Positions 10,691 through 55,764 of a DNA stretch of 64,000 nt are shown piece by piece. How positions within the stretch are numbered: the stretch's first letter is position 1; every line of letters starts with the position of its first letter. The DNA comes from Squalus acanthias (Eukaryota), in the NCBI GenBank assembly GCA_030390025.1, contig CM059441.1, forward strand, positions 20,894,001 to 20,958,000, given 5' to 3'. A model generated the notes under the pieces. It saw only the letters and a program-made list of their open reading frames with translations, was not told the DNA's origin and ran no database searches. The translations under genes were made by a program, and so were the position numbers.

Positions 10691-10704
10691 TGGTGACCCC
10701 GACG
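10691..10704 (+). promoter_or_regulatory. Primer binding site complementary to the 3' end of tRNA-Trp
   Basis: TGGTGACCCCGACG is the reverse complement of ...CGUCGGGGUCACCA. Confidence 0.88.
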
Positions 10705-10729
10705 CTCAGAACGTATTCCGAGCACTGCA

Positions 10730-12153
10730 ATGGCGGACACGAACGCAGTTTCCGTGAAACTGCCGGAGTTTTGGGAAAACCAGCCCGAAGCCTGGTTTCT
10801 CCAAGCTGAATCTCGCTTCCGGCTGCGAAATATCACCACAGATGGGACGAAGTACGACTATCTCGTCACATCACTCAGTAGCGCCGCAGTTTCGAAGGTT
10901 TGGACAACGCTGCAGAACCCACCAGAGGAAGGCAAGTACGCACATCTCAGGACAGCGCTCCTTAAAAAATTTACGGCCTTGGCATATAAGCGAAACTGCC
11001 ACCTCCTCGACCTTCCAGGCCTCGGTGATGCCTCACCGTCAGACCTCCTCTCCCACATGCTCTCCCTCACCGACGAGAGCCCACCCGGATCCCTCTTCCG
11101 CACGCTGTTCATCCGCCAGCTCCCTCTCAGCATCCGCCCAGCGATCGTGGCGTCCGGCCTCACGAACCTGGAAGCCCTGGCCGATGAGGCCGACAAGCTG
11201 CTGTCCGCTCACTCCAGCCACGACGTCACTCTGGACCTGGCAGCCAATGCCTGGGCGCGCCCCTCACCATCCAGCACGCGGCCACAAGGGCCTGTCACCA
11301 GGCCCACGGGGCCTTCACGCCCCACTAACCCGGGCCACTGTTACTACCACGCACGGTTCGGCGCCAGGGCACAACGGTACACACCTCCCTGCTCTTTCAA
11401 GGCCACCCCTGTACCAGCCCCCGCGATGGCTGTGGGCCACGCGGGCTCCCTGCTGTACGTCACGGATGACAAAACCGGCCGCCGGTTCCTGTGCGACACT
11501 GGGGCTCAGCAGAGCATCATCCCGGCCTCCTCCCTCGACATCCAAAAGGGCGAACGAGGACCGGCGCTGGCTGCTGCTAACGGCTCGGAAATCCGGATAT
11601 ATGGCACCTAGACAGTCACCCTCGACCTCGCTGGTCGCCGCTACCGATGGGAGTTCATCACTGTCAAGGTGCTCTCCCCTCTCATCGGCGCAGATTTCCT
11701 GTGCGCCCACGGCCTACTGGTAGACATCCCCCGTCACCGCCTCGTGGACATGAACACCATGTCCCCCATCCTGGGCGCCATGGCCCCCCGTCAACCCGCC
11801 GACATGACGTCACAGTGCCACGCCCTGACCACGGATGACTACTCGGCACTCCTGGCCGAATTCCCAGCCCTTACCAATCCGACCTTCTCCGCGGAGGCCG
11901 CCAAACACGGGGTGGAACACTTCATCCCCACCACAGGCCCCCCAGTGTACGCCCACGCCCGCAGGCTGGACCCGGCCAAACTGGAGATCGCGCGGACCGA
12001 GTTTGCCACCATGGAACAGCTCGGCATCATCCGCCGCTCCAACAGTCCCTGGGCCTCCCCACTCCACATCGCCCCCAAACCAGGCGGAGGTTGGCGCCCC
12101 TGCGGGGATTACCGCCGCCTCAATGACGCCACCACTCCTGATCGGTACCCAGT
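10730..12153 (+). pseudogene. gag-pol: CsRn1-type Gypsy gag-pro-RT (single frame, in-frame TAG at 11609..11611, truncated early in RT)
   Basis: Motifs KLPEFWENQPEAWFLQAE, CHCC-type CYYHARFG..(C>Y)..PC, protease FLCDTGA, IGADFL, and RT start SNSPWASPLH, WRPCGDYRRLN, DRYPV. Confidence 0.9.
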
Positions 12154-12276
12154 GTATGAAGCTCCCGTGTCCAACAAATAACTACCCTTCTGCTTCTCTA
12201 CCTCCATCTCCACCAGGGGTCGCTTCCACGCATCATAGCTGAGCGGACACAGGTAGACGGGCTGTGCGGGCTCTAG
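12152..12276 (-). pseudogene. pro: Aspartic protease N-terminus, in frame after the gag UGA (truncated)
   Basis: Reading on past the TGA gives LEPAQPVYLCPLSYDAWKRPLVEMEVEKQKGSYLLDTGASYT; the DTG codons are at 12171..12163. Confidence 0.88.
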
Positions 12277-14100
12277 TCATTGGGTACTGTTGGACGGGGC
12301 TGCGGCACCTGCGGGGCCGGTAGCGACTGCCACCCTTCCTTGCGAAATCATGAGGGTGCGCATGGCTCCCAACATTGATTCTATCGCATCGGGATGGATA
12401 GGCACACCAGCTCCCTTATCGGGGGCAGGTGCCTGGGCTCGGGCTGCGGGATTTTTATCCCTGGACTCTTTCCAAGGGTTCCTGCAGTTCTTGCGCCAGT
12501 GCCCTGTCTTTCCGCACCCGAAACAAGCATTACTGGCTTGTGGGACGCGATTTCCCTCCTGATGCCACTCCCTTAGAGCCGGGGCGGTGGGCCGCGCCTC
12601 ATGCACCTTTCCCTTGAGGGGACGCGCTCCCATACTCCTAGTATTACGGTACCCTACCGTGAGTCGATTTAGGACCGACTCCTCTGTAGTGGCGGGGTTA
12701 GTGGGATCAAACCACGCTTTGGCCTGCTCCCTGACGGCTGGCAAACTGTTGGCTACTAAACACCTGAGCCAATGAATTAAACCAACCCCGTTCAAATAGG
12801 TGCGCTCTGGCGCACCTGGGCAGCTACGCTGGTATACTGGCCACAGCCTGTCGGCGAAAACCTTCGGGGGTTCTCCCTCCATCTGCACTGTCTGTCCCAA
12901 TCTAACGAACGGACCTTCATCGTCCGCTCCCAACACTTCCAGGACCTCGTCCCTCAATTCCCCATAGGTATGCTCTCCCCTTTTGCTCGCGTCTGAGAGA
13001 CACTGTAGGACCGAGCTGTCTAATGAGAACAGCAGCATTTTTGCCTTTTCTCCATTGTCGCAGCCATTAATGGCTGCGGTCTGCTCTACCTCCCTGAAAT
13101 GTACTGAAGGGTCGTCTGCCTCGGACAGCTTCCGTACGTGACTGATCATAGCCCTCAGCTGGTGTGCATTGTGTGGCAACACAAGCTGGCTGAGGAGATT
13201 CCCCGCTTCCCCATTGTCTCCCTCCGGGCCCCTCTTGATACCTGTAAGCGGGCACAACGGTCCCGGCTTCACTACTACTTCAGGGGGCTGTACTAACTCG
13301 GGGACCTCTTCCTCTACTTCTACCACTTCCTCCCTTACCCAGGTTGCCGAATAGCTGGGTGGCGCGGAGGGCACAGTGGCAAATACCTCCTCTGCTTTGT
13401 TCGGTGGGGATTTCTGAAATTCCCCACCCACCGGCGGCTGGTGTGCTGACAGGCTGATAAGGCATACCATGCCGTGCGCTTTATTCAGGGCCTCTTTAAG
13501 GTTCCCTATCTCTCTTTGGCAGACGCTGTGATCGGCCCCCTCATGTTTATCCTCGAGGGCCATCTTATATGCCGCCCTAACTCCCTTTAAGCTCTCTTCC
13601 TGGGCTTTTATTTGAGCAGCCAGGCGGGCACATCGTTCCCTTATTCTGCCCTCATTTAATTTTGCCTCAGTGACCTGGCACTCGAGGTAATCTATTTTCG
13701 CCTCATGGTGGTTGGCGACTAACTGGCGTTCTTGATGCAACGCATTTAAGGACGCGATGAGCTGCTGCCCCCCCGCGACCTTCTCGTCCATTTCCACCTC
13801 TAAACCCTTGATCTGAGCTGCCTGCGCTATGATGACCTGGTCCGAAAGCTGGACTTGCCTTTTATAACACATCAGCCAGACCGCTTTCTCTACAGATTTT
13901 TTATGTTCCTTGCTACCTGTCCATCTCACGGCTGCCTCTAGTGGACGCTTATCCACCAGCAGGTCACTTATCCATCTCTTAGTCAAATTCACTTTTCCAA
14001 AAACATAATCGGCTATTCTCTCTTCCATAACATTTCGCACATTCATACCAGGGTCTAACACATTATTTTCTTGCTGCCAGTGTCCCTTCGTGGTCGCCAT
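12277..14100 (-). CDS. gag: Gag polyprotein of an LTR retroelement (open for 607 codons; true start possibly the Met at 14046)
   Basis: N-terminal coiled coil, PSAPPSY, capsid MHR-like QMEGEPPKVFADRL, and CCHC knuckle CFGCGKTGHWRKNC. Directly follows the LTR and PBS. Confidence 0.92.
   Translation of the reverse strand: MATTKGHWQQENNVLDPGMNVRNVMEERIADYVFGKVNLTKRWISDLLVDKRPLEAAVRWTGSKEHKKSVEKAVWLMCYKRQVQLSDQVIIAQAAQIKGLEVEMDEKVAGGQQLIASLNALHQERQLVANHHEAKIDYLECQVTEAKLNEGRIRERCARLAAQIKAQEESLKGVRAAYKMALEDKHEGADHSVCQREIGNLKEALNKAHGMVCLISLSAHQPPVGGEFQKSPPNKAEEVFATVPSAPPSYSATWVREEVVEVEEEVPELVQPPEVVVKPGPLCPLTGIKRGPEGDNGEAGNLLSQLVLPHNAHQLRAMISHVRKLSEADDPSVHFREVEQTAAINGCDNGEKAKMLLFSLDSSVLQCLSDASKRGEHTYGELRDEVLEVLGADDEGPFVRLGQTVQMEGEPPKVFADRLWPVYQRSCPGAPERTYLNGVGLIHWLRCLVANSLPAVREQAKAWFDPTNPATTEESVLNRLTVGYRNTRSMGARPLKGKVHEARPTAPALREWHQEGNRVPQASNACFGCGKTGHWRKNCRNPWKESRDKNPAARAQAPAPDKGAGVPIHPDAIESMLGAMRTLMISQGRVAVATGPAGAAAPSNSTQ
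14082..14099 (-). promoter_or_regulatory. 18-nt primer binding site for tRNA-Arg (TCG-type 3' end)
   Basis: The minus strand reads TGGCGACCACGAAGGGAC, complementary to ...GUCCCUUCGUGGUCGCCA, 5 nt from the LTR end. Confidence 0.88.
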
Positions 14101-14104
14101 TATC

Positions 14105-16491
14105 TGTAAGGGGTTACGCGTGGCTCTGTGCTTAGCCTGGGTGCTAGTGCGGGGTTAGGCCTTGTTGCCTGTTCTGGTCTCCAGCCAGCCTGGTAGCACT
14201 AGACACCTGTGAGTGGTTCGACCCACTCGCCCTTACGGTTCTGACACTGGACTTAGGTGCGAGAGCAATAATGCAGAGAAAACTCAGGTAGACCCGGTTG
14301 AATAGTGCGAAATGGAAATTTTTTATTGCATATTGTTCAAGATTACGAAATAGATGTCATAAGCACAGATTAATGACATTACAAGCTTACATATATTTAT
14401 GAAACTAGGTTTAGGGAAACGAGGAGCGCATGACACATCGTAAAAGGGGACACACATTGGCCCAAAAATTAGTGCCGCTACGCGAGAGTACGCACTGTGT
14501 ACTCTCGCGTATTCTGTCTCCAATTGCCGGTTTTCTGCATGCACTGCGCATGCGCTGAAAACCGGCACTTGGTGAATTCAAAAGGGGGCGGTTCCTAGGT
14601 GAACCGCGTGCGCGCTACAGGCTGCGCGCACGCAGTTCACTTAGTGCTTTGGACGCGCAGTTAAGCATGGAAGATTTTAGACATAAAGAAAGGAGGCGTA
14701 AGACCCTCTTTTAACAAGGTAAGTACTTAATTAAGTATTATTTTGAATTTTTTTCAACAGGTATATCTTTTTTAGAGACTTTAAAGACAGGTAAGTTTAT
14801 TTTTATAACTTTTTAAAAGATTTTAAATTTTTTCAAAAATTTAATTTTTTGTTTAAAATGGTTAATTTATTTAACTATACTTATTTTATTAATCTGATGG
14901 TTTTTAAAAAAAAATTAATTGAGGTTTAGCTGTTCTTTTGGGGGGTTATAGTATTCATAGCTTTCGCAGCCGTGCTGTGAAAGCTATGAATGAAAGATGG
15001 TGTGCTGCCATTGGCTCTAACTGAGTCACGTGATCCCACAGCTCGCACGAATTAACTACGCCTGTGGGATACGAAAGCACTGCACAGATGCTGTCCAGAA
15101 CATCAAGTTCGTGCGAGCTCGGACTGAAAAAGCCAGCGCTCAGTGAGAGATCGCGGGAAGGCCTTACCCTCGCACAAACGCTCACTCACTCATTTTTGGG
15201 CCATTATAATTATCCTTAAAACATAAACCCTCCCCTATCAATACCTGTCCTAATCTAGATCTGTAGGATCTAGACTCATGCTCACCACTCGTGATAACTC
15301 GGAGAATTCCGAAACTCTGCTCGGATGTTTTCACCGCAGCACCTGACTATCCATGTGTTGATCAGGGGTCTCTGTTCCCCACTTGTTTACTCGCTTCTGC
15401 TCCGGCTAGCAGGCTGGACCGTCTGCTGTCATGAAGATCTGTGTTGACCTCGGACTCCAGATACAGTTCGAGGAAGAGTCTTACTGTGCCCGACACCAGT
15501 TGTCGGTAGAACTCGAAGAAAAGTCTTCCAGGGCCAGTTGTGGAGTAGCCGATAGAATTCGAAGAAATGGTTAATCGATTTTCGGGTGCGGTCGGGGTTT
15601 ACTGACCGCGGCGGCACGTGTAGTCGTCTTCTTCTCTTCTCATCTCATCTCATCTCATCTCCTCTCGGGCCTTCGGTTCCAACACCGTTTACCGACTTCT
15701 CGGGATGGTGCGCCCGCTTACCGGCCTTCGCAGACCAGCTCTCCACAGATCTTCGCGGCAAGCCACGAGGTTGACTCCCGGAAAATCCACGGATCAGAGG
15801 AGCGAGTCAAAGGAATAAGAGTCGAGCGAATAAGAGCGCGAGTAAGAGAAAGATGGACGTCTGGACACTACAGTTATAGTACTGTAATTCCTTATCTCCC
15901 GCCCAATCTTAATGTTCATCTTTTGTCATGTTTTGGCGCTCAAACTTCTTGTATGGGGTGGTATTTGTCGTTAATGGGTTTCGGTGACACTTGTAACTGT
16001 CTGACTACCCGTTAATATTTCTCCCATTGTGGAACCGGCTAGGAGTCTCCCTGGAGGGGTTTTGGGGGCCTCCGATTCTTGTTGTGAGTACCCGCGAACG
16101 GCTCTCTCATCGTAGAGCCGTGGGGAATTTGCGTATCAATGTCTTTTGGATGGGCCCCTAATTGCCCAGTACAATAGCCCTCGTTTGTGCATGGAAAACC
16201 TGATTCCAGCACTTATATTCCTTGCTTGGGTGTTAAAATACAAAACGATCTCGTCTTGTCTTATCTCAATATGCTGAGTCCTGTCCGATCTTGCTGAAAT
16301 GTTTATTGAAACGCCATCTTGTCTGCCTGCTGAAAATCTAGAACCTTCTGCCACGAGGCGTGGTGGCCATTTTACAGGCTGTTTGTGTCCGTTTTGAAAC
16401 CTGACAGCATTTTGCTGAAATAAAGCTGTTTATACGAAACTATGTCTCCTTCTCATTATTATGAAATCGCGATAATTTTGCGAATTCTACA
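14105..16491 (-). mobile_element. 5' LTR (about 1.64 kb excluding a MITE insertion) of the readthrough gag-pro element
   Basis: TGTA...TACA ends; colinear with the solo LTR at 54123..55764; minus-strand AATAAA at 14327..14322. Confidence 0.92.
14459..15202. mobile_element. 744-bp Harbinger-type MITE inserted in the LTR
   Basis: Ends GGCCCAAAAAT...ATTTTTGGGCC with TSD att. It is absent from the solo LTR (acacattata near 54471); a second copy lies at 50099..50842. Confidence 0.93.
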
Positions 16492-17569
16492 AACCTAACC
16501 ACCTTTCAGGGGTGGTATCAGCCCAATTATAATCATACTCGAACACCCCCGTTTCTTGTATTAACCAATACCTCAGGAGTTGGTAGGCCACAGGGGGCAT
16601 TATGTTTTAAAAAGCAGGCTGAAGTAAGCAGGATGCAGGATGAAAAGGAAGTCGGAGAGAGCTCTTGTAATCAAACAGTCGTGTGGCAACCACCAATTCC
16701 TGGCCTGTTTGACCGGGGATTTTATTCAGTTTGACTGGACAAAAGTAAATAATAAAACCAGCAGGTCCCCCTGGACCGGCGACCCTATCCGAATATGGAG
16801 GGGAGGAGAAGGTAATCTGACAGCCTATAACTGTACCTATTTTATATGCGGGAACAAGGCTTACCCATGGTTGCCACATAACTGGATAGGATCCTGCTAT
16901 TTAGGTTATGTAGTACCTTATATCCATATTTTAGATGAGATAGGAAAACATTATGAATTCCAAAGAACTAAAAGAGAGGTAGAAACTTATGAAAGAGTCT
17001 TTGGAGTATTAATAGCCCCATACGGAGTAGGGAAGTTAATGGGAGAAGTAACCGAGCTAGCGGACCTGATAGAAAAAGTAGCAAATGAAACTGAGGAAGG
17101 ATTGTCCGAAATGAGTGCGGAAATGGTAGCTATGAGAGTAATGACATTACAGAATCGAATGGCAGTAGATTATCTGTTGGCAGATAAAGGAGGAACTTGT
17201 GCTTTTATAGGGAGTGAATGTTGTACCTATATCCCAGACAGTTCAGAAAATATAACTAACATTGTCAAACACATAAGAGATGCAGTGAGTCAGTATAAGA
17301 ATCCAAAGAGCCAAGGATGGTTTGACTGGATGCTGGGAGGATGGCTGGGATCAATGGGACAAATATTATTGCATGGACTTATAGTAGTAGTAGTAGCAGT
17401 AATTGTATGTATCAGTCTGTTTGTCAAAATGGCCAAGTGCGGTTGTGATAGGCTAGGTAAGGCAGTTATACCCGAAGGAAGTATGATGGTGCAGAGGGAA
17501 CTAAATGAAGAAGAAGAGGACGAACCTCTAGGAGAAGAACTAAGGCGATTGAATAAGATAAATTTTTAA
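16492..17569 (+). pseudogene. env: ERV envelope with gamma-type TM (epsilon/gamma-like fish ERV); 5' end cut by the LTR insertion and SU frameshifted near 16720
   Basis: Furin site RTKR, fusion peptide, ISD LQNRMAVDYLLA, CX6CC (CAFIGSECC) and TM anchor ILLHGLIVVVVAVIVCISLFV. An upstream SU frame is open from 16492 (NLTTFQGW...GESSCNQTV). Confidence 0.92.
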
Positions 17570-17675
17570 GGATTAGATGGCCAAGATGTTGCCGGTCACA
17601 GTTGGTTCTGGGACCGAGAAGAAGGACAAGGGACTGAAAGGGTCAATTTCAGTTAGATTTTGTCCTAGTAAGGAC

Positions 17676-18330
17676 AAAAAGGGGGGAATGTGGAAGTGTA
17701 TTTTTAATTGGACACAAAATGGCTTCTTGGACACAAAATGGCTTCATAAGACACAGAATATAAAATCTAAAATGGCCTACACAATGTCTGTTAGAAAGAT
17801 TAGCCAATTGTTTATAGTTTCAACCTAATGAAGGAATTTCAGTTTGCAGACTGTTTAAATTGCCCCCAATAAATAACTTAGGTTTGTAGAACAAGAAGTC
17901 TCTCTCTAACGAGCTTAAGATAACTAAGGCTATAGCGTGAATCACTATCTCCCTTGAATTCTAGATGGTGTGGTGGGAGAAATCACACGTCCCCCCTTTA
18001 GAAGGGATTTAGTTAGCCTTATCTCAAGGGATTTCTGCTGTTTTAAATCTTTATGACCTTTAGAAAGTCCTTTTATGTATACACAAATACTCTTTTAACT
18101 TGTTTTATAGGCACTATGCTGTCAATTAATGATTTATTACCATGTCATGTGATATAGGAAGCTTGTATTTTTCTGTGTATAAATTTGTAGCAGTTTTTGT
18201 ATTTGCAGGGTGTCATCATAGCCGAATTTGACTATGGTTGCACCCTCCTTGCAGCAAGTAAATTAATAAAACCTTCCTTTGACGCTACTTTATGTTTAAA
18301 GAGTCTTACTCGGAAGTCGAAACTTCGACA
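17676..18330 (+). mobile_element. Polypurine tract (17676..17688) and 3' LTR (17689..18330) of the env-bearing ERV
   Basis: AAAAAGGGGGGAA is followed by TGTGGAAG...CTTCGACA (imperfect inverted ends), with AATAAA at 18265. Harbinger sequence resumes at 18331. Confidence 0.88.
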
Positions 18331-19320
18331 GCAGTCAGTGGCACCCTGCACCATGGGGAAGCCCGCTATCCTCACAAAGCCCAATGCGCGTTCATGCTGT
18401 TTGGCCCGGGTCATCAGGAAAGAGATGTACTGGCGTCTCCTTTTATAGAGGGCATTTGTGACCTGACGGATGCAGCAATGGACCGTGAAATGGGAGATAT
18501 TGGCGATGTCCCCAGTAGCTGCTTGAAAGGAGCCGGTGGCATAAAAATTCAGAGCCACTGTGACCTTCACTGCCACCGACAGAGACGTCCTGGTCCTCAG
18601 TTGAGGCTGCAGATCTGGCTGCAGCAAGTGGCAGAGCTCAGTGACCACCTCCTTGCTGAAGCGCAGCCTGCGCAAACACTGCACCTCAGACAAATGAATG
18701 TAGGAGAATTGTTCCCGGAATACCCTGGAACAATTAAGGTCTCCTGTGCAGAGGCCTGTTGGCCCTCCTCCCTCTGGCCATGATTGCCACTCTCTCTCTG
18801 CGTCTCTGTTGCCTCCGATTCTGCAGGCACAGGACGATGCCCCAAATCAGTGCATCCCCCATCGTCTCTTGACAATCGAAGTAATGAAGGTCAAATCCAA
18901 AAGTACCTGCAAAGTGATGCTCAGTAGCCAAAACTACTTCACACAGTGTTGACTCTATGCAGTAGTCTCTCTCTCTCTCTCTCTCTCTCCTTCAGAATGA
19001 GTGGTGCAAAAATGTCTACCACAGAAAAAGGCAGGAAGAGGGTGCCTTTAAATAGCACCCCCCCAGCCCCTCACTGACTGGGAAACGTGCAAGTCTCCCT
19101 GTCATTGCTTATGGCAGGCGGAAAGGACGGGGGCGCCACTCAATATCCAGTCCGGGGCCTCACCAGGGCATTGCATGGTTGACTGACGGCTTGACCTGCG
19201 GGCGCAGGAGATTGGGGCGGTAAACTTTTGCGCCGCCGCAAAAACTCGTCAATTTCGCGAGCGGTGCAAACATCGCCGCGCCCGGGCGCTAGTTGCTTTG
19301 CGCCCCATTAGCACCCTTTT
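18331..19320 (-). mobile_element. Harbinger remnant: terminal region plus transposase N-terminal half, cut by the ERV
   Basis: MSEVQCLRRLRFSKEVVTELC...GFPMVQGATDC. 19000..19320 resembles one end of the 42608 MITE. Confidence 0.85.
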
Positions 19321-20589: not shown

Positions 20590-21900
20590 TACATCAAAGC
20601 TATGCAACAAACAGTAACTATATTTCCAAACTTCCATGCACAATGTGGCAATTTAGCTCCAGAACGGTCCAACCATATGAAGTGCTAACTTAGAATCTCA
20701 ATTATTTGCTCAGTGAGGGCCCTTTTTGACACAAGGGCATCATTGGGCCAGAAATTCGGCTCTCCGGCTTCCCGCGGGTGTAAGCATCGTGCGCGTACTT
20801 ACCTACCGCGCCTGCCGTTGTGTTTCGGGCCCACGAGGAATTCGAGTCCTGGGCCTCCTGCAGCTGCCGGCGCGCAGTGCTTGCGTATCCCAGGGGCGCA
20901 GTTAGTTCGAAGCGTCCCCTGGGATCATGTGGGCCATGGAGAGCCAATCCTAGCAGGGAATTTTCATTCATAGATTTGACAGGAAGACCTGTTAAATCTA
21001 TGAATAGAGATCGGCCCCAAAACCACACTAAAACTTCAAATAAATTTTTAAAAACCATCACATTTTTAAAATAACTATAAATTACATAAATCAACTACTT
21101 TAAACAAAAATTTAAATTTTTGAAAAAATTAATTCAACTTTTTAACGGTGCTAAAAATAAACTTACCTTTCTTTAAAGTATGTAAAAAAATAAACCTGTT
21201 GAAAAAATATTTAAATTGTAATTAATTAACCACTTACCTTGTTAAAAACAGGCCTTGCACCTCCTTTTTAAATGTACAGCTTCTCCATACTTAACCTCAC
21301 GGAGAAACCTAAAAAAAAAACGAAGTTCACTGCGTGCGCGCTGCCTCTCCCGCGCACGCGTTCGACTTGTGAACCCCTTCCTTCAGGGGAACGGAAGTTC
21401 TGGTTTCCCGCACATGCACAGTGCATGCGTGAAACCAGCACTTCAGGTGCCCTTACGGGTGAGTACACAGCGCGTACCCATCTGACAAGCGCCGAATTTC
21501 TGGCCCAATTATATCCTTGCTTGGCTCAGTATGGGAATGGTGCGCAGGTACGAGCAGCCTTGGTTACACTATATACCCTACGCTTCTCAAGTTTTCCTGC
21601 TAAGAGAACTGAGCATTAACCTGCATGATTTCCATCCGTGTATCACACATCTGTACATTGATTCGATGGAATTCCTTTTGTTTGATGTCACGATTGTAGT
21701 TTAGTGAATGAATAGTGCAGGGAATGATGTCCTGCACCTTTGAGAACCTACAAACACAGTGAGAAGCAAACAGGTTTGGCTGCTGTTTCTGTTTGGTATT
21801 GCTGAATGTTATGTACCCATGTGCATGCCTTTGCAAGTGTAAGAATAAGCCATTTGCTGTAAGAATTTGCTATAACTTGATCAAAGTTAAAAAAGGTGAC
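20590..21900 (-). pseudogene. Old Harbinger transposase remnant, interrupted by a MITE
   Basis: RFSKVQDIIPCT, KEFHRINVQMCD, GYN..EQII and HFIWLDRSGAKL...IVTVCC correspond to HARBI1-type motifs. Confidence 0.65.
20745..21506. mobile_element. Harbinger-type MITE with perfect 16-bp TIRs
   Basis: GGGCCAGAAATTCGGC...GCCGAATTTCTGGCCC, with att/aatt flanks and an AT-rich core. Confidence 0.9.
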
Positions 21901-36800: not shown

Positions 36801-39800
36801 CAGCGGGAGGTTAGCGGCGGCGGTAGCCGGGAGCGCCCTGTGGCGCTGTGCCTCCGGCGATGATGTCATAGCCGTACGTAGAGCCTGCTCGCGCCCCGGC
36901 TGCAAACTTGGCTCCCTCCCCCTGACCTACCGCCGAACGCTGTGTCCGACAGGGTCAGGGTGCCGTGTTTGTGGCCGCGGCGGCGCTAATTTAAAGGCCA
37001 GGTGCCGAGCGGCTATATTTTTTTGGGCCGCCTGCCAGCACCTGCCCCCTCTTGCCTCATCTTGTGGGGTTCCGGCCGCGATCGGGCGATTGATCTCTTG
37101 CCGGTACCCCGCTCCCTGGTGGTCCAGCAGGGCCCCGGTGCGCGCTACGCTAGGCCCCTCCCCTTTAATCAGGGGAGGGAGGCCTGCAGTACCGCGGCGC
37201 TTGGGGCTGACACGCCTGCCGCTGCTGCACGTAGCGCCGCTATATTCAATGGGAGCACCCCAAGAGGGATGGGGAACGCTTCCATTAGGGCCCCGCCTCC
37301 TGCTTGGGGTGCTACCATTCAACTTCGGGCGCGGGGGCGCTAACTTTTTCGGAGCTCTAAAAGTAGTGTCCCGGCGAAGTTATCGCCGCAAAGGGGCCGT
37401 GAGCCAATTTTTCCCCGAATCTCTCACATGGAAGCCGTGCCAATCAAAACACCAGCAATGAGAACATTGTACCTGCTCGGCGATTTGGATCCTGAAGATT
37501 GGTTTCGATTATCAGTGGAAATTATATTTGTACTTGTGGAATGTGTAGTTGTTGATGATACTGTTGAAAAACCTTCACAAGAATATTCAGGTCCTATTGA
37601 AACAAGGGAATAAAATTCAGATTCACCTCATTTTCACTTGTAGTCAACCAAGAGAGCACTATCGTCAAATGGAACCTCATTACTTGAGTAAACGCCTGGT
37701 TGATATAATGGATTTGGATGATTTAATTCCTGTGTAATTTCCCCCTCTCTGGTAGCAAGGAGAGATGCTGCTGACACCTGGCCGTGGCCCATTTTTACTG
37801 ATAATTTCTGTTTCTTTCCCATATCTGAGAGTTGGTGGCACAGAGTTACTATTGGGGCAGTTAAAGGGATCAGGTTGGTGGGACTACAAACCAGGTAAAC
37901 CCATTTTTGCCCCGCGCAAGCGTAAAGGAAAGTTCCAGCCAGAGAGCTGGCCTCTGCCACCAGCGGAAAATGTATTTCTGGGGGCCGAGAAACCACAATT
38001 ATGTCCTGGAGAGATGTCCTCAGTGGAAAAGGAACAGCAGCTGTTCATTGAGTGCAGAGGGAAATATTAGACCAGGAATTACTGCTCTCGATATTAGTGG
38101 ACAAGCAGTTAAAATTTGAATGGCGTTTCTCTGTTAAAAGAATGTTTCTGTTACAATATAGACAGACGAATGTCACACGAATACATTAAACTGTACACTG
38201 GGCCGTGCAGCGCTGCCTCGTTGGAAGGCTCCTTCCCTCTCTTAAAGGGAAGGGCCATCGCTGCAGGCTCTGCAAGGGGAAAACTTACCTGGTGCCTGAC
38301 GGCAGCCGCGATCCGGCCCGTTGCACTGCAGCAGAGACTCGGGCTGATCGATCGCGGGCGAAGAAAAGTGAAAGATAAACAGAACCAGCATTTCCAATTT
38401 TTTTTGTTTCCTTACCTCGGCTACCTCGCCTTTAAGTATCGCCCCCAAAGTGCCCGGCCGCCCGATGAACGCCTCCTGCAGCTGTCGGTGTTTTCACCCG
38501 GCGATGCTGCAGGGGGTGGAATTGAAGTTCGGGTCTGGGGCACTACCGGAGCGATGACATTACCATCTCCGGGCGAAGGAGATCGGGGCGCAACACCATA
38601 CCGCCACCGCAAACTTCCCGCGAGTCAATCTTCTCACCGCGCCCAGTCGGTAGGTAATTACCACCCCATTATCGCCCCACGGAGGCGATATCTGGAGGCA
38701 CAAAGGTGCCCAATTTCTCCCACCTATATCTCTAGAGGGGGACTTGAACCCACAACCGACTGGTATCAGAGGCAAGAGCGCTACCAACTGAACCACTGCT
38801 GACACCTACAGTACAAATGCAATTTACAGGTGAAATTTCTACCTGCTGCTGACATCCTTCTTGTCTGACAGCTAAAGCAAGTGACTACATTAACATACGG
38901 CCGGAGTCAATATTTACATATGTTAATTTATATGCATTACTGCTCAGGAGAAAATACATTTCTCTTTGTTTTCTGACCGTTTTGATGTTTCTCAGCGCAA
39001 CCAATGGTGAACATATTGCTTCCCATTCTGCGGAAAATTAAATCGCTACATTTAAGTAGGCTAGGTTCCTCCTCAAGTCAGAACCAGGGTCATTGTTTTA
39101 TGGTGACTGAGTAATTCAGTTTTTAACTGTTGAAGGATCCAAATGGAGTGAATTTGGCCAGTTATAGTTTCTCTGAGTGACTGAAGGAAATTAACTGGCG
39201 ACCAGTTTGGATAAACATTAATTAAAAAAATTCATTAATCATGTTGTTTGTTTAAAGTAACACTTACCAATGCCGCTGATTTGTGTCACATAACTGCAGG
39301 TCTTCCCTGCTCTGTTGAAGACTGACACGTTAACCATTTCACTGGATTTTTCCCCCTGATTATTTGAGGCTGTGCAGTAATATTGATGATGTTGCTGTTT
39401 GAAGGATTGACAATGTAGATCCAGTTTATTGGTGTCAGAGATCTTTGAATCTTCAGACGGGGTCTTTTCGTACCATGTGTACTGAATGGGAAGAGATCCC
39501 TGGACAGACTCACAGGAGACTGACACTAAGCCTCCAAAACATGAGACATTTGGTGGCGATAAATATCTAAGTACAGGAACTGACACGGATTCTGTGGGAA
39601 AGAAACAAACATTCAGATACTGACTGAACATCTAAAAATCAAATACTCTCCAATTTCCAGTATTTCTGTATCTCAGCCAGGGTCTGCCATGTTGGAATCT
39701 CACCGGCACATCTACCTGTCCAGCAGTAATGATACTGAGGATGTGTCAATGGGAAAATCAGGGCTAACAATTTCTCTCAGTAGCAGGTAGCCAGCCTCCA

Positions 39801-42800: not shown

Positions 42801-45800
42801 TGCCCTGGTAGCGCCCCGGAGCGGATATTGAGTGGCGCCCCCTGCCTTACCGCCTCCCGCTAGCAACGACAGGTTGAGGGGAACGTTTTGCAGTCAGGAA
42901 GGGACTGGGGGAGCGCTATTTAAAGGCGACCGCTTCCTGCCTTTTTTGTTGGTGACATTTTTGAACCACGCATTCTGAGAGAGAAAGAGAGAGACTTCTG
43001 GAGAGATTCAACGCTGTGTGAAGGGGTTTTGGGTACTGAGCAGCACTTTGCAGGTTCATTTTGATTTGCCCTTCCTTGTATCGATTTAGAAGAGACTCTG
43101 GGGGTTGCACTCTGAGCTCTTTCCCTGGGTCTCTGCATTGTTCTTTCCAGCAGATTTGATGTACAGGTCTCTCCAGGCCGAGATTCAAGGCTGCAATGAG
43201 CAGGATGTGGATGGAAAGCAAGATCAACCCTCCCCTTTAAGAACTGGCAGGCACATAATTGTCTGTGTTCAATTGCTGACTGACATCACATGAGCTTCGC
43301 CAGCGCTCTGAGTTAGCGCCTCACTCCTCGGCCTTTGCGCCTTAAGACAGATGTGTAGCGCCTGATTTAGTGCTCCAATCACCTCCAGGGGCGATAAAAG
43401 TCAAGTTTGCAGTCGGAGGCGATAATTAGCGCCAGGCGCTAATCTTTGCGCCCGGCCGATAATTGCGCCCCAAACGGGGCGATACTGAATTTTTCTCCCC
43501 AAGTTCCTGTTGAGGCGTTAGCTTTGCCAGCATGGGCTCGATGGGCCGAATGGCCTCCTTCTGTTCTGTAACCATTCTATGATTCTATGGTCCCTGTCCG
43601 GCTCCTCACTGCCCCCAGCAATGCATCAAGGGAGGCGATGTTAAAGCGGGATACAGCTTTGTGAGTCCTGAGTCTATCTTCTATGATTATTTTCCCTGTT
43701 CCAAAGCTTCCAAATTCCATCTTTGAATTGACCAGTTAAATACTCGAGTTGAGATCACATCATGCGGGTCCACACCACACCCGCTACCGCACATACAACG
43801 CCACACCCAGGAGTAAAATTATAATGAGCTGGCTGCGTAAAAATGCCACAGACAGACGCACTGAAATCACTTCTGAGTTTCCCACGCGATATCGGATCCC
43901 CTGCACCGAACACGCCTCGAAGTTAATATCCGGGCCATTGCATTTAATAATTGATCCATCAGGAGGTATGATTGGGAGGAAGATAATGTCTCAACAATTA
44001 ATAAAGAGGGTTCTTTTACCATCAAAACAGTGACCTAGCTTTTCAATTTTAGTTTAGTTCGCTTGTAAAGTTGACCAAAATATCTCATTGATGATGTGAG
44101 CCACCCATCATATCAGGAAACCTATGAAACCTGTTAAGCTCTGTGGATTGATTCTATTTTTATTATTTTCTAAGAATTCATGCCATTAGTAACGACTTGC
44201 TGCTCACTGCTTTTGTTATTGTCTGACTATTAGTTTTAGTCTGAATGCAAACATCTGACATTTAATACAGTTCAGAGACAGGAAAATGTGGGGGCATCCC
44301 ACATGATGTCTGACGCAATAGCCGGTAGTTAAAGGAATTGTTTGTCCCATAATACTTGAAATTCTTGGTCAGCTCGTTGGACAGGCCACGAATTGGGAAT
44401 GTGCAACATGAGTCGGATTTCCTGACCTCTGCCCGCTACCTGTGAGACTCTGCACTGCTGCGGAGCCTTGGGATATCGGAGATGTCATGTTTCCTCCCAG
44501 ATATAACATTGATCAGACATTTCAGTAGAGAGTAATAAAGTAAATCGCTGAGAAATGTACCGTAAGATATTTGTAGCTTTACTTTAAACAATGGATCGAG
44601 GGCGTAAGATTTTTCAATCCCACAGCTGTACCATCCTGCATCTCCTGGACGAAGATCCTTCATAGTAACAACAAATATTCCTGCTGTCTTGTTATCTGTG
44701 ATTGACATTCTTCCTTGTCTTCCATGTCGCACATTTGTTTTTACTAATTCTGAACAACCGATAGTTCTCCCGTGACACCAATATTTCACATAAGACTGGT
44801 ACTCCGATTTGTCATAGTAACAATCTATTGTGATCGCTCTTCCCACTACTCCTGTTACGTATTTTTCTGCCCACAATGCACCTGAAACTGAAGAGACAAC
44901 ATTTGTGAAATTGAACAGGAAATAACTGCTTAATACAAACAGATACATTTTAATAAGAGTTACCACTCTGCACAGAGGAATCTCTCCACTCCATCTATTG
45001 ATACAGTTGAATTCCTTCTAGTTTCTGATGAAAGGAAACATTAATATAGTGCCTTATCACATCCTCAGGATGTGCCAAAGCACTTCACAGCCAATGATTT
45101 ACTTTTGAAGTATAGTCAGTATTGTTATTGTGTCAGCTGTCGCTCAGTCTTTGCACTCTCGGCTCTGAGTCAGTAGATTGTGGGTTCAAGCCCCACTCCA
45201 GAGACTCTGAGCAGAAAATCGAGACTGACATTCCAGTACAGTATTGAGGGAGTGCTGCACTGTTGGAGGTGCCGTCTTTCAGATGAGTTATTAAACCCAG
45301 AGCGCGTCTGCCCTCTCAGGTGGATGCAAAAATTCCCAGGGAACTATTTCAAAAAAGAGCTGGGAAATTCCTCCCGGTGTCCTGGCCAACATTTATCCTT
45401 CAACCAAAAATCAATATTAAACAGATTATCTGGTCATTATCACCTTGCTGTTTGTGGGACCTTGCTGTGCGCAAATTGTCTGACTCTTTTCCTACATTAC
45501 AACATTGGCAACACTTCAAATAAATAATTGGCTGTAAATCGCTTTGGGGCGTCATGAGGTCATGAAAGGTGCTACTTAAATGCAAGTCTTAGTTTCTGAC
45601 AGCAACAACAACTTGAATTTGATAATCATCTCCCATTCATCCAGCACCATGGGAACAGCCAAAGGAATGCCCATCCTCTCAACTTCGTTGCTGCAACCTG
45701 CACTGCAGCAGGATTTGGAGAGGGAAGGTGAACATGGTTCATGCAACCAAGGACATAGAAAGGAAGAGGATTGAGGATCGGCAAGGGAAGATTCAGGAAC

Positions 45801-49429: not shown

Positions 49430-51818
49430 GGGAGGAATTGAATGAAATCACTATTTGTAGGGAAATGGTGTTAGGGAAATTGATGGGATTGAAGTCCGAT
49501 AAATCCCCAGGGCTTGATAATCTACATCCTAGGGTACTTAAGGAAGTGGCCCTAGAAATAGTAGATGCATTGCTGGTCATCTTTCAAAATTCTATAGCCT
49601 CTGGAACAGTTCCCATGGATTAGAGGGTAGCTAATGTAACCCCACTATTTATAAAAGGTGGTAGAGAAAAAACGGGGAATTATGTAAGGCTGACATCGGT
49701 AGTGGGCAAAATGCTGGAGTCCATTGTAAAAGATGTAATAGCAGAGCACTTGGAAAACAGTGACAGGATCAGACAAAGTCAACATGGATTTACAAAAGGT
49801 AAATCATGCCTGACTAATCTACTGGAATTTTTTGAGGATTTAACTGGTAGAATAGATAAGGGAGAACCAGTGGATGTGGTGTATTTGGACTTTCAGAAGG
49901 TTTTTGATAAGGTCCCGCATAAGAGATTAGCGTGCAAAGTTAAGCACATGGGATTGGGGGTGAGGTACTGATTTGGATAGAGAACTGGTTGGCAGACAGG
50001 AAGCAAAGAGTTGGAATAAACGGGTCTTTTTCCGAGAAGCAGGAAGTGACTAGTGGGGTACCGCAGGAATCGGTGCTAGGACCCCAGCTATTCACAATGG
50101 CCCAAAAATTAGTGCCTCTACGCGAGAGTACGCACTGTGTACTCTTGCGTATTCTGTCTCCAATTGCCGGTTTTCTGCATGCACTGCGCATGCGCTGAAA
50201 ACCGGCACTTGGTGATTTCAAACGGGGGCGGTTCCTAAGTGAAACGCGTGCGCGCTACAGGCTGCACGCACGCAGTGCACTTAGTGCTTTGAACGCACAG
50301 GTAAGCATGGAAGATTTTGCACCTAAAGAAAGGAGGCGTAAGACCCTCTTTTAACAAGGTAAGTAGTTAATTAAGTATTATTCTGATTTTTTTTCAACAG
50401 GTATATCTTTTTTAGAGACTTTAAAGAAAGGTAAGTTTATTTTTATAACTTTTTAAAAGATTTTAAATTTTTTCAAAAATTTAATTTTTTGTTTAAAGTG
50501 GTTAATTTATTTAACTATACTTATTTTATTATTGTGATGGTTTTAAAAAAAAAGTTAATTGAGGTTTAGCTGTTCTTTTGGGGGGGTATAGATTCATAGC
50601 TTTCACAGCACTTCCTGTGAAAACTATGAATGAAAGATGGTGTGCTGCCATTGGCTCTAACTGAATCACGTGATCCCACAGCTCGCACGAATTAACTGCG
50701 CCTGTGGGATACGCAAGCACTCCCCAGCTGCTGTCTAGAAAATCAAGTTCGTGCGAGCTGGGAATGAAAAAGCCGGCGCGCATTGAGATATCGCGGGGAA
50801 GCCTTACCCCCGCACGAAGGCTCCCTCTTTAATTTCTGGGCCAATATATATTAATGATCTAGACGAGGGAACTAGATGTAATATCTCTAAGTTTGCAGAG
50901 GACACAAAGCTGGGTGGGCGTGTGTGCTGTGAGGAGGAGGCACAGAAACTCCAGTATGATTTGGACAGGTTGGGTGATTGGGCAGATGCATGGCAGATGC
51001 AGTATAATGTGGATAAATGCGAGGTTATCCACTTTGGTGGCAAAAACAGGAAGACAGATTATTATCTGAACAACAATAGATTGGGAAAAGGGGAAGTGCA
51101 ATGAGACCTGGGTGTCCTTGTGCACCAATCGCTGAAGGTAAGCAAGCAGGTGCAGCAGGCGGTTAAGAAGGCAAATGGTATGTTGGCCTTCATAGCGAGA
51201 GGATTCGAGTACAGGAGCAAGGATGTCTTGCTGCAGTTGTACAGGGCCTTGGTGAGACCACACCTTGAGTATTGTGTGCAGTTTGGTCGCCTTATCTGAG
51301 GAAGGATGTTCTTGCCATGGAGGGAGTGCAGCGAAGATTTACCAGACTGATACCTGGGATGGCAGGAATGACGTATGAAGAGAGATTGGGTTGATTAGGC
51401 TTATATTTGCTAGAGTTGAGAAGAATGAGAGGGGATCTCATTGAAACTTTAAAATTCTAACAGGACTAGACAGAATAGATGCAGGAAGGATGTTCCCGGT
51501 GGCGGGGGAGTCCAGAACCAGGGGTCACAGTCTAAGGATAAGGGGTAAGCCATTTAGGATTGAGATGAGGAGGAATTTCTTCACCCAGAGAGTGGTGAAC
51601 CTGTGGAATTCTCTACCACAGAAGGCAGTTGAGGCCAATTGATTAAATATATTCAAGAAGGAGATAGATATATCTCTTAAGGCTAAAGGGATCAAGGGAT
51701 ATGGGGAGAAAGCAGGGACAGGGTACTGAATTTGGATGATCAGCCATGATCTCATTAAATGGTGGAGCAGGCTCGAGGGGCCGAATGGCCTACTCCTGCT
51801 CCTATTTTCTATGCTTCT
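49430..51818 (+). mobile_element. 5'-truncated CR1 LINE (TSD atactg), interrupted by a MITE
   Basis: KSPGLDNLHPRVLKE, SQHGFTKGKSCLTNL, KFAEDTK and tail; atactg at 49424 and 51819. Confidence 0.92.
50099..50842. mobile_element. 744-bp MITE, second copy (TSD aat)
   Basis: aat|GGCCCAAAAATT...AATTTCTGGGCC|aat; colinear with 14459..15202. Confidence 0.93.
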
Positions 51819-54122: not shown

Positions 54123-55764
54123 TGTAAGGGGTGACCTGTGGCTCTGTGCTTAGCCTGGGTGCTAGTGCGAGGTTAGGCCTTGTTGCCTGGTCTGGTCTCC
54201 AGCCAGCCTGGTAACACTAGACACCTGTGAGTGGTTCGACCCACTCGCCCTTACGGTTCTGACACTGGACTTAGGTGCGAGAGCAATAATGCAGAGAAAA
54301 ACTCAGGTAGACCCGGTCGAATCGTGCGAAATGGAAAATCTTTATTGCATATTATTCAAGATTACGAGATACACGTCATAAGCACAGATTAATGACAGTA
54401 CAATCTCACACACAGTTATGAAACTAATTTTAGGGAAACGAGGAGCGCATGACGCATCGTAAAAGGGGACACACATTATACTTATCCTTAAAACTTAAAC
54501 CCTCCCCTATCAATACCTGTCCTAATCTAGATTTGTAGGATCGAGACTCATGCTCACCACTCGTGATAACTCGGAGAATTCCGAAACTCTGCTCGGATGT
54601 TTTGACCGCAGCACCTGACTATCCACGTGTTGATCAGGGGTCTCTGTACCCCACTTGTTTACTCGTCTCTGCTCCGGCTAGCAGGCTGGACCGTCTGCTG
54701 TCATGAAGATCTGTGTTGTCCTCGGAGTTCCGATACTACTCAAAGAAGAGTCTTCCTGTGCCCTCACACCGGTTCGATAAAACTCGAAGAAGGGTCTTCC
54801 TAGGCAAGGAAGTGTTTATTCGACTTACAGGCGCGGTCAGGGCTTACTGACCGTGGCGATGCGTATTGTCGTCTTCTTCTCTTCTCATCTCATCTCATCT
54901 CATCTCATCTCCTCTCGGGCCTTCGGTTCCAACACCGTTTACCGACTTCTCGGGATGGTGCGCCCGTTTCAAGGCCTCACAGCCCAGTTCTCCACAGATC
55001 TTCGCGGCAAGCCACGAGGTTGATCCTAGCGGATCAGAGTCCAGAGCCGTCAGGCAAGAGAATAAAAGTTCAACAGCCTTCCAGCGAGTCAAAGCAGCAA
55101 GCGCAAGAAGAAGCAGAGGCAGCAGTCAGCAGAGCGATGGACGGTCGTACCTTACAGTTATAGTGCTGTAATTCCTCTTTTCCCGCCCAATCTTAATGTC
55201 TATCTTTTGTCAGGGTTTTGGCGCTCAAACTTCTTGTATAGGGTGATCTCCGTCTTTAATGGGTTTCGGTGATACTTGTAACTGTCTGAGTACCCGTTAA
55301 TACTTCTCCCATTGTGGAACCGGCTAGTAGTCTCCCTGGAGGGGTTTTGGGGCTTCCAAATGCTTTCTGTAACTACCCGCAAACGGCTCTCTCATCATAG
55401 AGTCGTGGGGATTTTGCATATTAATGTCTTTGGATGGGTCCTTGATCGCTCGGTACAATAGCCCTTATTCGCACAAGGGAGACCGATTCCAATATTTATG
55501 TATAAAATGCAAACCCATCATGTCTTGTCAATTATCTCAAATGTGCTGAGTCCTGTACGATCTTGCACAAATGTTTATTGGAACGCCATCTTGTCTGCCC
55601 ATTGAAAGTCTAGAACTTTCTGCCACGAGGCATGGCGGCCATTTTACAGGCTGTTTGTGTCCGTTTTGAAACCTGACAGCATTCTGCTGAAATAAAACTG
55701 TTTGTACGAAACTTTATGTCTCCTTCTTATTTTATAAAATCGCGATAATTTTGCGAGTTCTACA
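54123..55764 (-). mobile_element. Solo LTR (1642 bp) with 4-bp TSD agat
   Basis: agat|TGTAAGG...TTCTACA|agat; the empty site ttcagattcacctc is near 37620. Confidence 0.95.

Follow-up and report, generated by a model that had tools for sequence, protein, structure and literature searches.

Endogenous retroviruses (ERVs) related to the snakehead retrovirus (SnRV) are already known, including from a chimaera (CmiERV lineage I; Han 2015). This lineage, clade Huo (Xu et al. 2018) and the Ovex1- and SnRV-related ERVs, compared here by description only, appear in the available excerpts as the same SnRV-related, non-foamy grade of class III; neither the fold of Env nor the context of readthrough nor the start of Gag is described there. 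According to Chong et al. (2014), some Ovex1- and SnRV-related ERVs carry a zinc finger together with GPY/F, and the table there lists ERV3/ERV-L and ERV4 with 5-bp target site duplications (TSD), no zinc finger and no GPY/F. For foamy viruses (Spumaretrovirinae) a fusion protein fold of the F type was described for Env (PMC11468914). Lokiretroviruses, whose RT clade is sister to retroviruses, combine a dual RNase H with an F-like Env (Wang and Han 2021, PMC7947760); their integrase is closest to CGIN1, and an smc gene may be present. Since no similarity of this Env to other retroviral Envs was seen, four scenarios for the origin of retroviral Env were left open there.

The window analysed here, i.e., the whole stretch of 64,000 nucleotides from Squalus acanthias (GCA_030390025.1, contig CM059441.1, positions 20,894,001 to 20,958,000), contains at 12152..16491, wholly on the minus strand, a dead fragment of a genuine endogenous retrovirus, namely its 5' third. 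Probably it belongs to the snakehead-retrovirus-like grade (clade Huo, non-foamy class III), and complete members of the family carry gag, a pol with dual RNase H and an Env of predicted paramyxovirus F fold. A previous sequence-only reading had noticed a long LTR, a tRNA-Arg primer binding site (PBS), an uninterrupted Gag of about 600 codons, a protease in frame after a UGA codon, and a solo LTR with a 4-bp TSD; all of these were confirmed, as detailed below.

The 5' LTR (14105..16491, minus strand, TG...CA) measures 1,640 bp after removal of an insert of 744 bp at 14459..15202, which has GGCCC terminal repeats and a 3-bp ATT duplication, and which is a non-autonomous DNA element foreign to the virus; by its features we take it to be Harbinger-like. 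Further copies of this type of insert are present in the window at 50093-50853 and 20874-21477. Because a TATA-like box and an AATAAA signal are both located within the last 300 nt of the LTR, we infer the U3/R/U5 borders such that U3 comprises about 1.3 kb. A solo LTR of the same family (54123..55764, minus strand, 1,642 bp) is flanked by the target duplication AGAT, the 4 bp of which would be due to the viral integrase. The protease stub (12152..12276, minus strand) consists of the first approximately 41 codons and is cut just after DTGA, where it adjoins a plus-strand Gypsy element, itself truncated in RT; this copy lacks the remainder of pol, with env and the 3' LTR, the loss of RT, IN and env having been noted before. 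An env at 16628-17569 beside the LTR was considered as the missing gene and rejected, since it lies on the opposite strand, gives a TLV_coat match (E 1e-12) and comes with a 3' LTR of its own. The copy was probably inserted into the env of another ERV and would then have lost its 3' part by deletion.

Between LTR and PBS there is a spacer of 5 nt (14100..14104, minus strand), which ends with the A that opens the first in-frame ATG of Gag. The PBS (14082..14099, minus strand, 18 nt) is perfectly complementary to CCA and the 15 nt that form the 3' end of a tRNA-Arg(TCG) gene of the host, and PBS variants among the copies match two host isodecoders of tRNA-Arg(TCG). A host tRNA-Arg(TCG) would be the primer for reverse transcription. 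The first in-frame AUG overlaps the PBS, and if it is used, the PBS would represent Gag codons 1-7. Gag is presumably translated from genomic RNA, probably from this AUG, with Met25 as an alternative start. Such a start on the PBS would force the signals for packaging and splicing into the LTR or inside gag; a literature search on this arrangement listed general papers only.

The gag gene (12277..14100, minus strand) encompasses 607 codons from the ATG at 14100 to the TGA at 12277 and encodes an N-terminal coiled coil (helix predicted over residues 64-215), late-domain motifs, a capsid region and a single CCHC zinc knuckle (12484..12525, minus strand; Pfam E 0.007). Coiled coil, knuckle and the motif PSAPPSY (13351..13371, minus strand), in which PSAP and PPxY overlap, were all found as previously claimed; PSAPPSY is retained in subfamilies of 71-84% identity, and budding of Gag may proceed via these motifs. 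The designation of the capsid motif as Gypsy/spuma-like had to be abandoned, as it is the general major homology region, which aligns to gammaretrovirus Gag (probability 90%, E 1e-6) as well as to SnRV Gag. A structure model of Gag was poor (pLDDT 50); capsids (MLV, Arc, HIV) headed its Foldseek matches, none of which reached E 0.001.

At the end of gag the stop codon is embedded in the sequence UGA-CUAG (12273..12279, minus strand). This context was found in 96/100 among the copies listed and is also kept in a family which is just 36-52% identical in Gag; upstream of the protease motif an internal Met is the one separate start that pol could use. The heptanucleotide is identical to that of type II readthrough, known from the UGA-CUA of Sindbis-type alphaviruses and the UGACUAG of mammalian genes. 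The element differs from these systems in that the context stands at a retroviral gag-pol junction and that no stimulatory stem-loop was detected: RNA 3' of the gag stop, folded in four lengths, did not clearly exceed mononucleotide shuffles in stability at any of them. The enzymes are likely, to judge from sequence, to be made by predicted stop readthrough of the alphavirus type, whereby a few percent of ribosomes would pass UGA-CUAG and yield Gag-Pol. A review of 2026 gives this context for no retrovirus, and the junction would represent a third kind of readthrough signal in retroviruses.

Complete copies of about 12.6 kb occur elsewhere in the genome, with the order LTR-gag-pol-env-LTR, the full 18-nt PBS and a polypurine tract (PPT), and the family is abundant, amounting to thousands of copies. 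Their pol encodes PR, RT, RT_RNaseH (tether), RNase_H and integrase, with RT_RNaseH and the second RNase_H both above the Pfam cut-off, i.e., a dual RNase H; a GPY motif is present, and the integrase is followed by an acidic tail of about 270 aa. Thus the tether and the env ORF suggested as items to look for in full-length copies were both present, and these copies did not turn out to be an env-less Gypsy family. Besides the acidic tail, no further ORF of at least 200 aa was common to the long copies, and no 3'ORF between env and LTR was seen in the copies examined. From four sequencing runs, presumably of RNA, short contigs were obtained across all 30 bins, with no splice joint among them.

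Shared variants gave pN/pS values of 0.08 for env, 0.22 for gag and 0.03 for IN, compared to 0.49-0.97 for the LTR control; the copies were the best protein matches, which depresses pN within the query stretch, and env outside this stretch showed 0.12 and 0.08. Gag, pol and env are thereby shown to be under purifying selection, with the acidic tail being weakly constrained (0.40; 0.74 over the last 100 codons). These data bear on the notion that the family has spread solely as an intracellular retrotransposon, with env as a passenger, the UGA as the plain end of gag, and Pol made in another way. High copy number is more usual for spreaders lacking env, and the thousands of copies, the existence of a pol-less subfamily and the finding of an unbroken pol in 0/10 long copies examined would be in accord with it. 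However, env displays 209 synonymous and 55 non-synonymous shared variants and 0 stops, and it is kept even in pol-less copies; together with the conservation of UGA-CUAG and the lack of a proper pol start, this makes purely intracellular spread unlikely. Env would be cleaved at RQRR and act in class I fusion, so that at least some of the family's spread would have occurred in enveloped particles, either by reinfection or from cell to cell in the germ line.

The env product of complete copies (about 780 aa) has its own signal peptide and a short tail. From profile comparisons it is homologous to the Envs of SnRV (hhalign 94%, E 1.2e-7, 349 columns) and of foamy viruses (E 1.4e-4); an Env HMM matched SnRV Env with E 1.1e-7, whereas the other retroviral ORFs compared gave E 0.1 or worse. 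Homologues were found in frogs, sharks and one skate. Pfam and single-sequence PDB searches with env produced no significant match, and the ESM Atlas returned one unnamed chordate cluster at 0.84. The model, of moderate confidence (pLDDT 61.5, pTM 0.44) and with low whole-chain TM scores (0.2-0.5), resembled paramyxo- and pneumovirus F (Foldseek E 6.5e-11; VIA Z 10.8, rmsd 21.1, 357 aligned), and Env is thus predicted to share the fold of the measles- and RSV-type fusion protein (paramyxovirus F). Ahead of the F core, residues 81-188 form a beta sandwich in the model; the Ig signal is weak (Pfam Ig_3 E 0.049, in a homologue 0.0085, below the cut-off; VIA Z 5-6). For SnRV and the walleye viruses, no report of an Env of the F type was found in open-access text, and the passages available from two papers on foamy F are silent on both.

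Placement was obtained from RT of complete copies. The tree contained two Loki rows, recognized by motif, and was built without sequences of Ovex1, SpeV, CmiERV and Repbase ERV3/ERV4; it put the element inside Retroviridae (100/98; 99 in a quick tree) and the Loki rows outside. Grouping with Gypsy was rejected (AU p 0.0097), and a branch of 91/99 separated the class I group from the element, although 4-bp TSD, zinc finger, GPY/F and stop readthrough (predicted for the element) are common to both and hence not diagnostic. Accordingly, the earlier statements that the traits are of retrovirus type and fit neither ordinary Gypsy nor gamma/epsilon ERVs held, but the proposed position near the boundary between Gypsy and retroviruses did not; the element is not an intermediate between them.

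A lokiretrovirus was also our first guess, in view of the dual RNase H and F-like Env, and the coiled-coil Gag could be added, as Loki-derived Bik-1 Gag of Bhikhari has one at its N-terminus; in PMC7947760, 0/6 chondrichthyan genomes had Loki. It was dropped on RT motifs and trees: the element reads LPQGF, and the Loki rows shown have PFGY-type motifs, the RT motifs of the element being those found in SnRV; RT identity is 34% to Loki versus 43% to SnRV; grouping with the two Loki rows was rejected (AU p 0.036). The F-like Env is not diagnostic, because SnRV and foamy viruses have it too, and the likeness in RNase H is no more so. Membership in lokiretroviruses, or in any lineage between Gypsy and retroviruses, is thus extremely improbable.

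Within Retroviridae, the element sits in a grade outside classes I and II that also holds SnRV and ERVs of frogs, coelacanth, turtle and birds, and in which branching is weakly supported; no starred branch unites it with SnRV, and AU tests gave p 0.15 for a Huo-like clade, 0.27 for sisterhood with SnRV and 0.24 with foamy viruses, so that none of the three groupings was rejected. The last value, the LTR of 1.64 kb, the coiled-coil Gag and the homologous F-type Env could point to a basal relative of foamy viruses, preserving the state before loss of the zinc knuckle and the shift of Pol to a spliced mRNA. To our knowledge, foamy viruses have no CCHC in Gag and produce Pol from a separate spliced mRNA; the element, in contrast, has the knuckle and an in-frame gag-stop-pol, its RT shares 32-35% identity with the four foamy RTs compared and 43-53% with those of SnRV and of frog and coelacanth ERVs, and the best tree keeps the two apart. 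We regard this descent as very unlikely and retain the snakehead-retrovirus-like grade.

That a backbone inside Retroviridae carries an Env of the F type, with sequence homology to the Envs of both SnRV and foamy viruses, favours the scenarios of Env origin in which Env was already present in the common ancestor. It is conceivable, if still somewhat doubtful, that an F-type fusion protein was the ancestral retroviral envelope and Envs of the gamma/beta type are derived, with the shark lineage keeping further early or unique solutions; F-type Env would then occur in lokiretroviruses, foamy viruses and SnRV, as well as in the shark lineage with its relatives from frogs, and apparently in walleye epsilonretroviruses. 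If so, the solutions kept would comprise the leaderless Gag start on the PBS, the UGA-CUAG readthrough, the Ig-like domain that precedes the F core, and a satellite subfamily without pol, in which the readthrough product would be a fusion of Gag, coiled coil and acidic tail. The many young copies offer natural sequences for testing such an ancestral Env.

Among known systems, Metaviridae/Gypsy have a single RNase H and the element a dual one; from ERV3/ERV-L and ERV4 it differs by the 4-bp TSD, the CCHC and the GPY motif, the latter two features being as in some of the Ovex1- and SnRV-related ERVs (Chong et al. 2014). The nearest RTs (51-53% identity) are those of frog and coelacanth ERVs annotated as "NYNRIN-like" (P0004, P0007, P0008, P0009), which do not form one resolved clade; identities to class I, foamy, Loki and Gypsy amount to 30-37% (class I 33-37%). 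SnRV (L051/P0120, 10,688 nt), recognized by its RT, which matched the SnRV entry in the supplement of PMC7947760, shares the coiled-coil Gag with a single CCHC (625 codons in SnRV), a stop in frame between gag and pol, an Arg-type PBS (TGGCGA-type), the dual RNase H and a homologous Env. The absence of RT, IN and env from the window had been thought to preclude classification, yet the combination of Gag, readthrough and Arg primer is the SnRV layout. In contrast to the element, SnRV has an LTR of 518 bp, a gag stop of UAG-GGC, a Gag AUG about 250 nt downstream of the PBS, a much longer Env with a tail of 136 aa, accessory ORFs and complex splicing; the acidic tail after integrase in the element and the RT identity of 43% are further differences. 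To this known group, the copies described here add the homology and predicted fold of Env, selection on env, the UGA-CUAG context and the Gag AUG on the PBS.

All features listed in the sequence-only reading (LTR, PBS, Gag, protease and target duplication) are present on the minus strand of the window; the element is real, was described correctly, and represents a piece of one copy from a large and fairly young family of shark endogenous retroviruses (ERVs) resembling snakehead retrovirus (SnRV). The LTR (14105-16491, minus strand) measures 1,640 bp once a 744-bp insert is removed, and a solo LTR (54123-55764) is flanked by the target duplication AGAT. A 5-nt spacer on the minus strand separates the LTR from the 18-nt PBS (14082-14099, minus strand), an exact complement of the 3' end of tRNA-Arg(TCG) plus CCA; one tRNA-Arg(TCG) gene complementary to it, called by ARAGORN, was matched in the same genome. 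The gag gene (ATG at 14100 to TGA at 12277, minus strand) comprises 607 codons and encodes a long predicted helix (residues 64-215), PSAPPSY and one CCHC. A protease stub of about 41 codons follows in frame on the same strand; its end, near 12152, abuts a Gypsy element on the plus strand (10697-12151) that has DUF7041 Gag, protease and the start of RT and is itself cut in RT, being truncated at the retrovirus junction. An unrelated class I-type ERV (16492-18331, plus strand) retains the 3' part of a TLV_coat-type env with CX6CC and an immunosuppressive-domain-like motif, a polypurine tract and the 3' LTR. We infer that the window copy was inserted into this TLV_coat-type ERV and later suffered a deletion.

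The window has three copies (14459-15202, 50093-50853 and 20874-21477) of a non-autonomous DNA element that bears GGCCC at its termini and a 3-bp duplication; several remnants near such elements (e.g., 82-1193) are, judging by motifs, presumably Harbinger-like transposases. Host exons with immunoglobulin domains, in a tandem duplication of ~15-18 kb (39239-39631, 44436-45017, 57800-58144 and 59406-59861), are taken by us to be CD300/pIgR-like from their resemblance.

In complete copies, Pol has the order PR, RT, tether (RT_RNaseH), second RNase H, integrase with GPY motif, and acidic tail. An ordinary Gypsy element is excluded by the tether, second RNase H and integrase domain set, and in this the sequence-only reading was right. 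The acidic tail (~270 aa; family locus L041:1565-2400) is internally duplicated, weakly constrained and contains an RRSSR motif, which we take, from its sequence, to resemble arginine-anchor chromatin-binding motifs.

That reading had also suggested a lineage near the Gypsy-retrovirus boundary, for example one related to lokiretroviruses (Loki), which combine a dual RNase H with an F-like Env (Wang and Han, PMC7947760, accessible text). Loki identity, suggested at first by these two traits, was rejected on RT motifs and on trees with two Loki-type proteins: the RT motifs agree with the SnRV row of the accessible part of that paper, not with its Loki rows. Loki were absent from the 6 chondrichthyan genomes surveyed there. 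Protein P0120 and contig L051, matched to the SnRV RT shown in PMC7947760, served as SnRV reference; the virus is 10,688 nt long (PMC12193657). The RT reference set comprised SnRV, two Loki-type, four foamy, three beta, seven class I, six Gypsy and three bird sequences, the last labelled class III-type here by motif. In an IQ-TREE RT tree of 44 rows, hand-picked from ~200, the element lay inside Retroviridae (support 100/98) and Loki outside; a quick tree of 65 rows gave the same placement. AU tests rejected groupings with Gypsy (p 0.0097) and with Loki (p 0.036; two Loki-type proteins), and did not reject SnRV sisterhood (p 0.27), a clade like Huo, the SnRV-related grade (p 0.15), or foamy sisterhood (p 0.24). 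The RT phylogeny proposed as a check places the element in Retroviridae, with full copies carrying tether, second RNase H and env; neither kinship with lokiretroviruses nor a Gypsy-retrovirus intermediate was borne out. Frog and coelacanth ERVs shared 51-53% RT identity with the element and SnRV 43%; class I, foamy, Loki and Gypsy RTs reached at most 37%. From the RT tree, AU tests, RT identities and SnRV gene layout, the element is a retrovirus, probably of the SnRV-like grade, and it is likely to belong in one clade with SnRV.

Within the 3.7-Gb genome, the best 150 of 7,042 candidates from a capsid search had 90-100% identity, and the best 150 of 7,902 from an env search 94-100%, candidates not being copy numbers. 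Lower bounds on family size were given by an exact LTR 21-mer (at least 1,432 matches) and an LTR-PBS junction pattern (at least 3,232, older subfamilies included; control pattern 1). Ten copies were taken out for study (15.5-20 kb each); two LTRs and an env-like frame were found in 9, one copy was interrupted by another element, and unbroken pol was found in none of the 10. Three undeleted copies measured 12.6-12.9 kb. LTR pairs diverged by 0.6-2.1% in five copies and were identical in one tandem-array pair; the comparison leaves out two copies whose 5' LTRs are rearranged and a further one that was unmeasured. Two full copies and the solo LTR have a perfect 4-bp target duplication, and two other copies have one with a single mismatch. 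Head-to-tail provirus arrays with a period of ~11.0 kb occur at L031-L032 (contig G000:C3234), where the LTRs are identical, and at G000:C15 68.92-68.93 Mb.

The host is probably a cartilaginous fish: a sevengill-shark protein shared 88% identity over part of Pol, and the Env homologues looked up (10 of 48 matches) came from one skate, three sharks and three frogs. Sawshark and frog gene models (P0051, P0052 and P0004) with env-family pieces fused to Niban-like, zinc-finger and Pol sequence are probably annotation artefacts.

The third ORF of complete copies (~783 aa from its Met) has an Env layout: its start is hydrophobic, RQRR has a hydrophobic stretch after it, and then come a heptad region, a Cys-rich region, a transmembrane segment and a short tail. 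A Pfam search with it gave no family above cut-off. A 36-sequence profile, built from the query with 35 of its 48 matches, detected foamy virus Env in PDB (E 1.4e-4) and was aligned by hhalign with SnRV Env (94%, 349 columns); among the ORFs of 15 viral contigs, the HMM found SnRV Env (E 1.1e-7), all others being no better than 0.1. The AlphaFold model (pLDDT 61.5) matched paramyxovirus and pneumovirus F in Foldseek (E 6.5e-11); VIA gave Z 10.8 against F (rmsd 21.1 over 357 residues) and Z 8.5 against foamy Env. Residues 81-188 form a beta sandwich in the model, with weak Ig signals. The top BFVD rows included baculovirus F and the predicted Envs of walleye epidermal hyperplasia virus 1 (WEHV-1; E 3e-13) and of walleye dermal sarcoma virus (WDSV; E 2e-10), and these models suggest that epsilonretroviruses may have an F-type Env too.

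Selection was assessed from variants against the commonest codon of each column, counted if common to at least 2 copies, after removal of tandem duplicates (3 gag and 2 env loci). Shared-variant pN/pS in env was 0.08, from 28 copies with 209 synonymous and 55 non-synonymous variants and 0 stops; in gag it was 0.22 (27 copies) and in integrase, where sites were few, 0.03. The LTR read as codons, a control, gave 0.49-0.97. The copies were best protein matches, which biases values within the searched stretch; env outside it gave 0.12 and 0.08. The family therefore needed Env during its spread, which points to spread as enveloped particles.

A subfamily lacking pol accounted for 8 among 27 close loci and 3 among 18 others (L003, L004, L012, L013, L017, L020, L027, L028, L125, L126 and L135). 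These copies keep gag and UGA-CUAG, but PR-RT-RH-IN gives way to a 22-aa coiled-coil repeat of 1-3 units, which in most of them shares its frame with the acidic tail; env was kept in all three taken out at full length.

Retroviruses copy the tRNA primer into the PBS. The family PBSs match two tRNA-Arg(TCG) isodecoders, which fits such copying: one is the window type, and the other was present in 4 of 30 close copies and in 16 of 20 junction-picked ones. The tRNA gene for this second type had 429 pattern matches genome-wide. Genes for tRNA-Arg(TCG) lie in large tandem arrays (period ~1.62 kb) at G000:C26 ~39.0-42.2 Mb (L068-L070), one locus also carrying tRNA-Ser. The base 5' of the PBS was A in 98 of the 100 first-listed junctions, creating an ATG in good context, and in 16 of 20 unselected copies the frame from it ran uninterrupted for 602-607 codons. 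Codons 7-24 had a pN/pS of 0.30, versus 0.08 for codons 25-60, and Met25 was invariant in 48 rows. Gag may well start at the PBS-overlapping AUG.

The gag stop has the context UGA-CUAG in 26 of the 27 loci covering the site, in 96 of the 100 first-listed among 301 pattern matches, and in 19 of 20 junction-picked loci. It is also kept in a distant ERV family (L127; Gag 36-52% identical) that shares the LTR end, the 5-nt spacer and the Arg PBS; there, no PBS ATG is present and Gag begins further downstream. UGACUA is the type II readthrough signal of alphaviruses, and UGACUAG is active in human genes (PMC13517186, a 2026 review); the retroviral contexts listed in the accessible text of that paper are UAG contexts plus UGAAGA, UGACGA and UGAAGU only. 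UGA-CUAG would be read through into pol; a stimulatory RNA structure was looked for after the gag stop and not found.

The SnRV-like group itself is already known. According to the accessible parts of the respective papers, SnRV-like ERVs occur in a chimaera (Han 2015), clade Huo across all major vertebrate lineages (Xu 2018), and chondrichthyan ERV RTs are mostly clade III (PMC11089739); Ovex1- and SnRV-related ERVs, some with zinc fingers and GPY/F, were left unclassified (Chong 2014). Close relatives of the family may be contained in the supplementary consensus set of Xu 2018. The link between foamy Env and F has been published (PMC11468914, accessible text); no publication stating it for SnRV or the walleye viruses was found in the accessible literature searched. 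As far as our searches reach, three features are unreported: a predicted F-type Env on an SnRV-like backbone, a gag stop in type II readthrough context, and a putative Gag start on the PBS. SnRV, like the element, has a coiled-coil Gag (625 codons in SnRV), one CCHC, an in-frame stop before pol and a similar PBS, whereas its stop is UAG, in the context UAGGGC, and that of the shark family is UGA, in UGA-CUAG.
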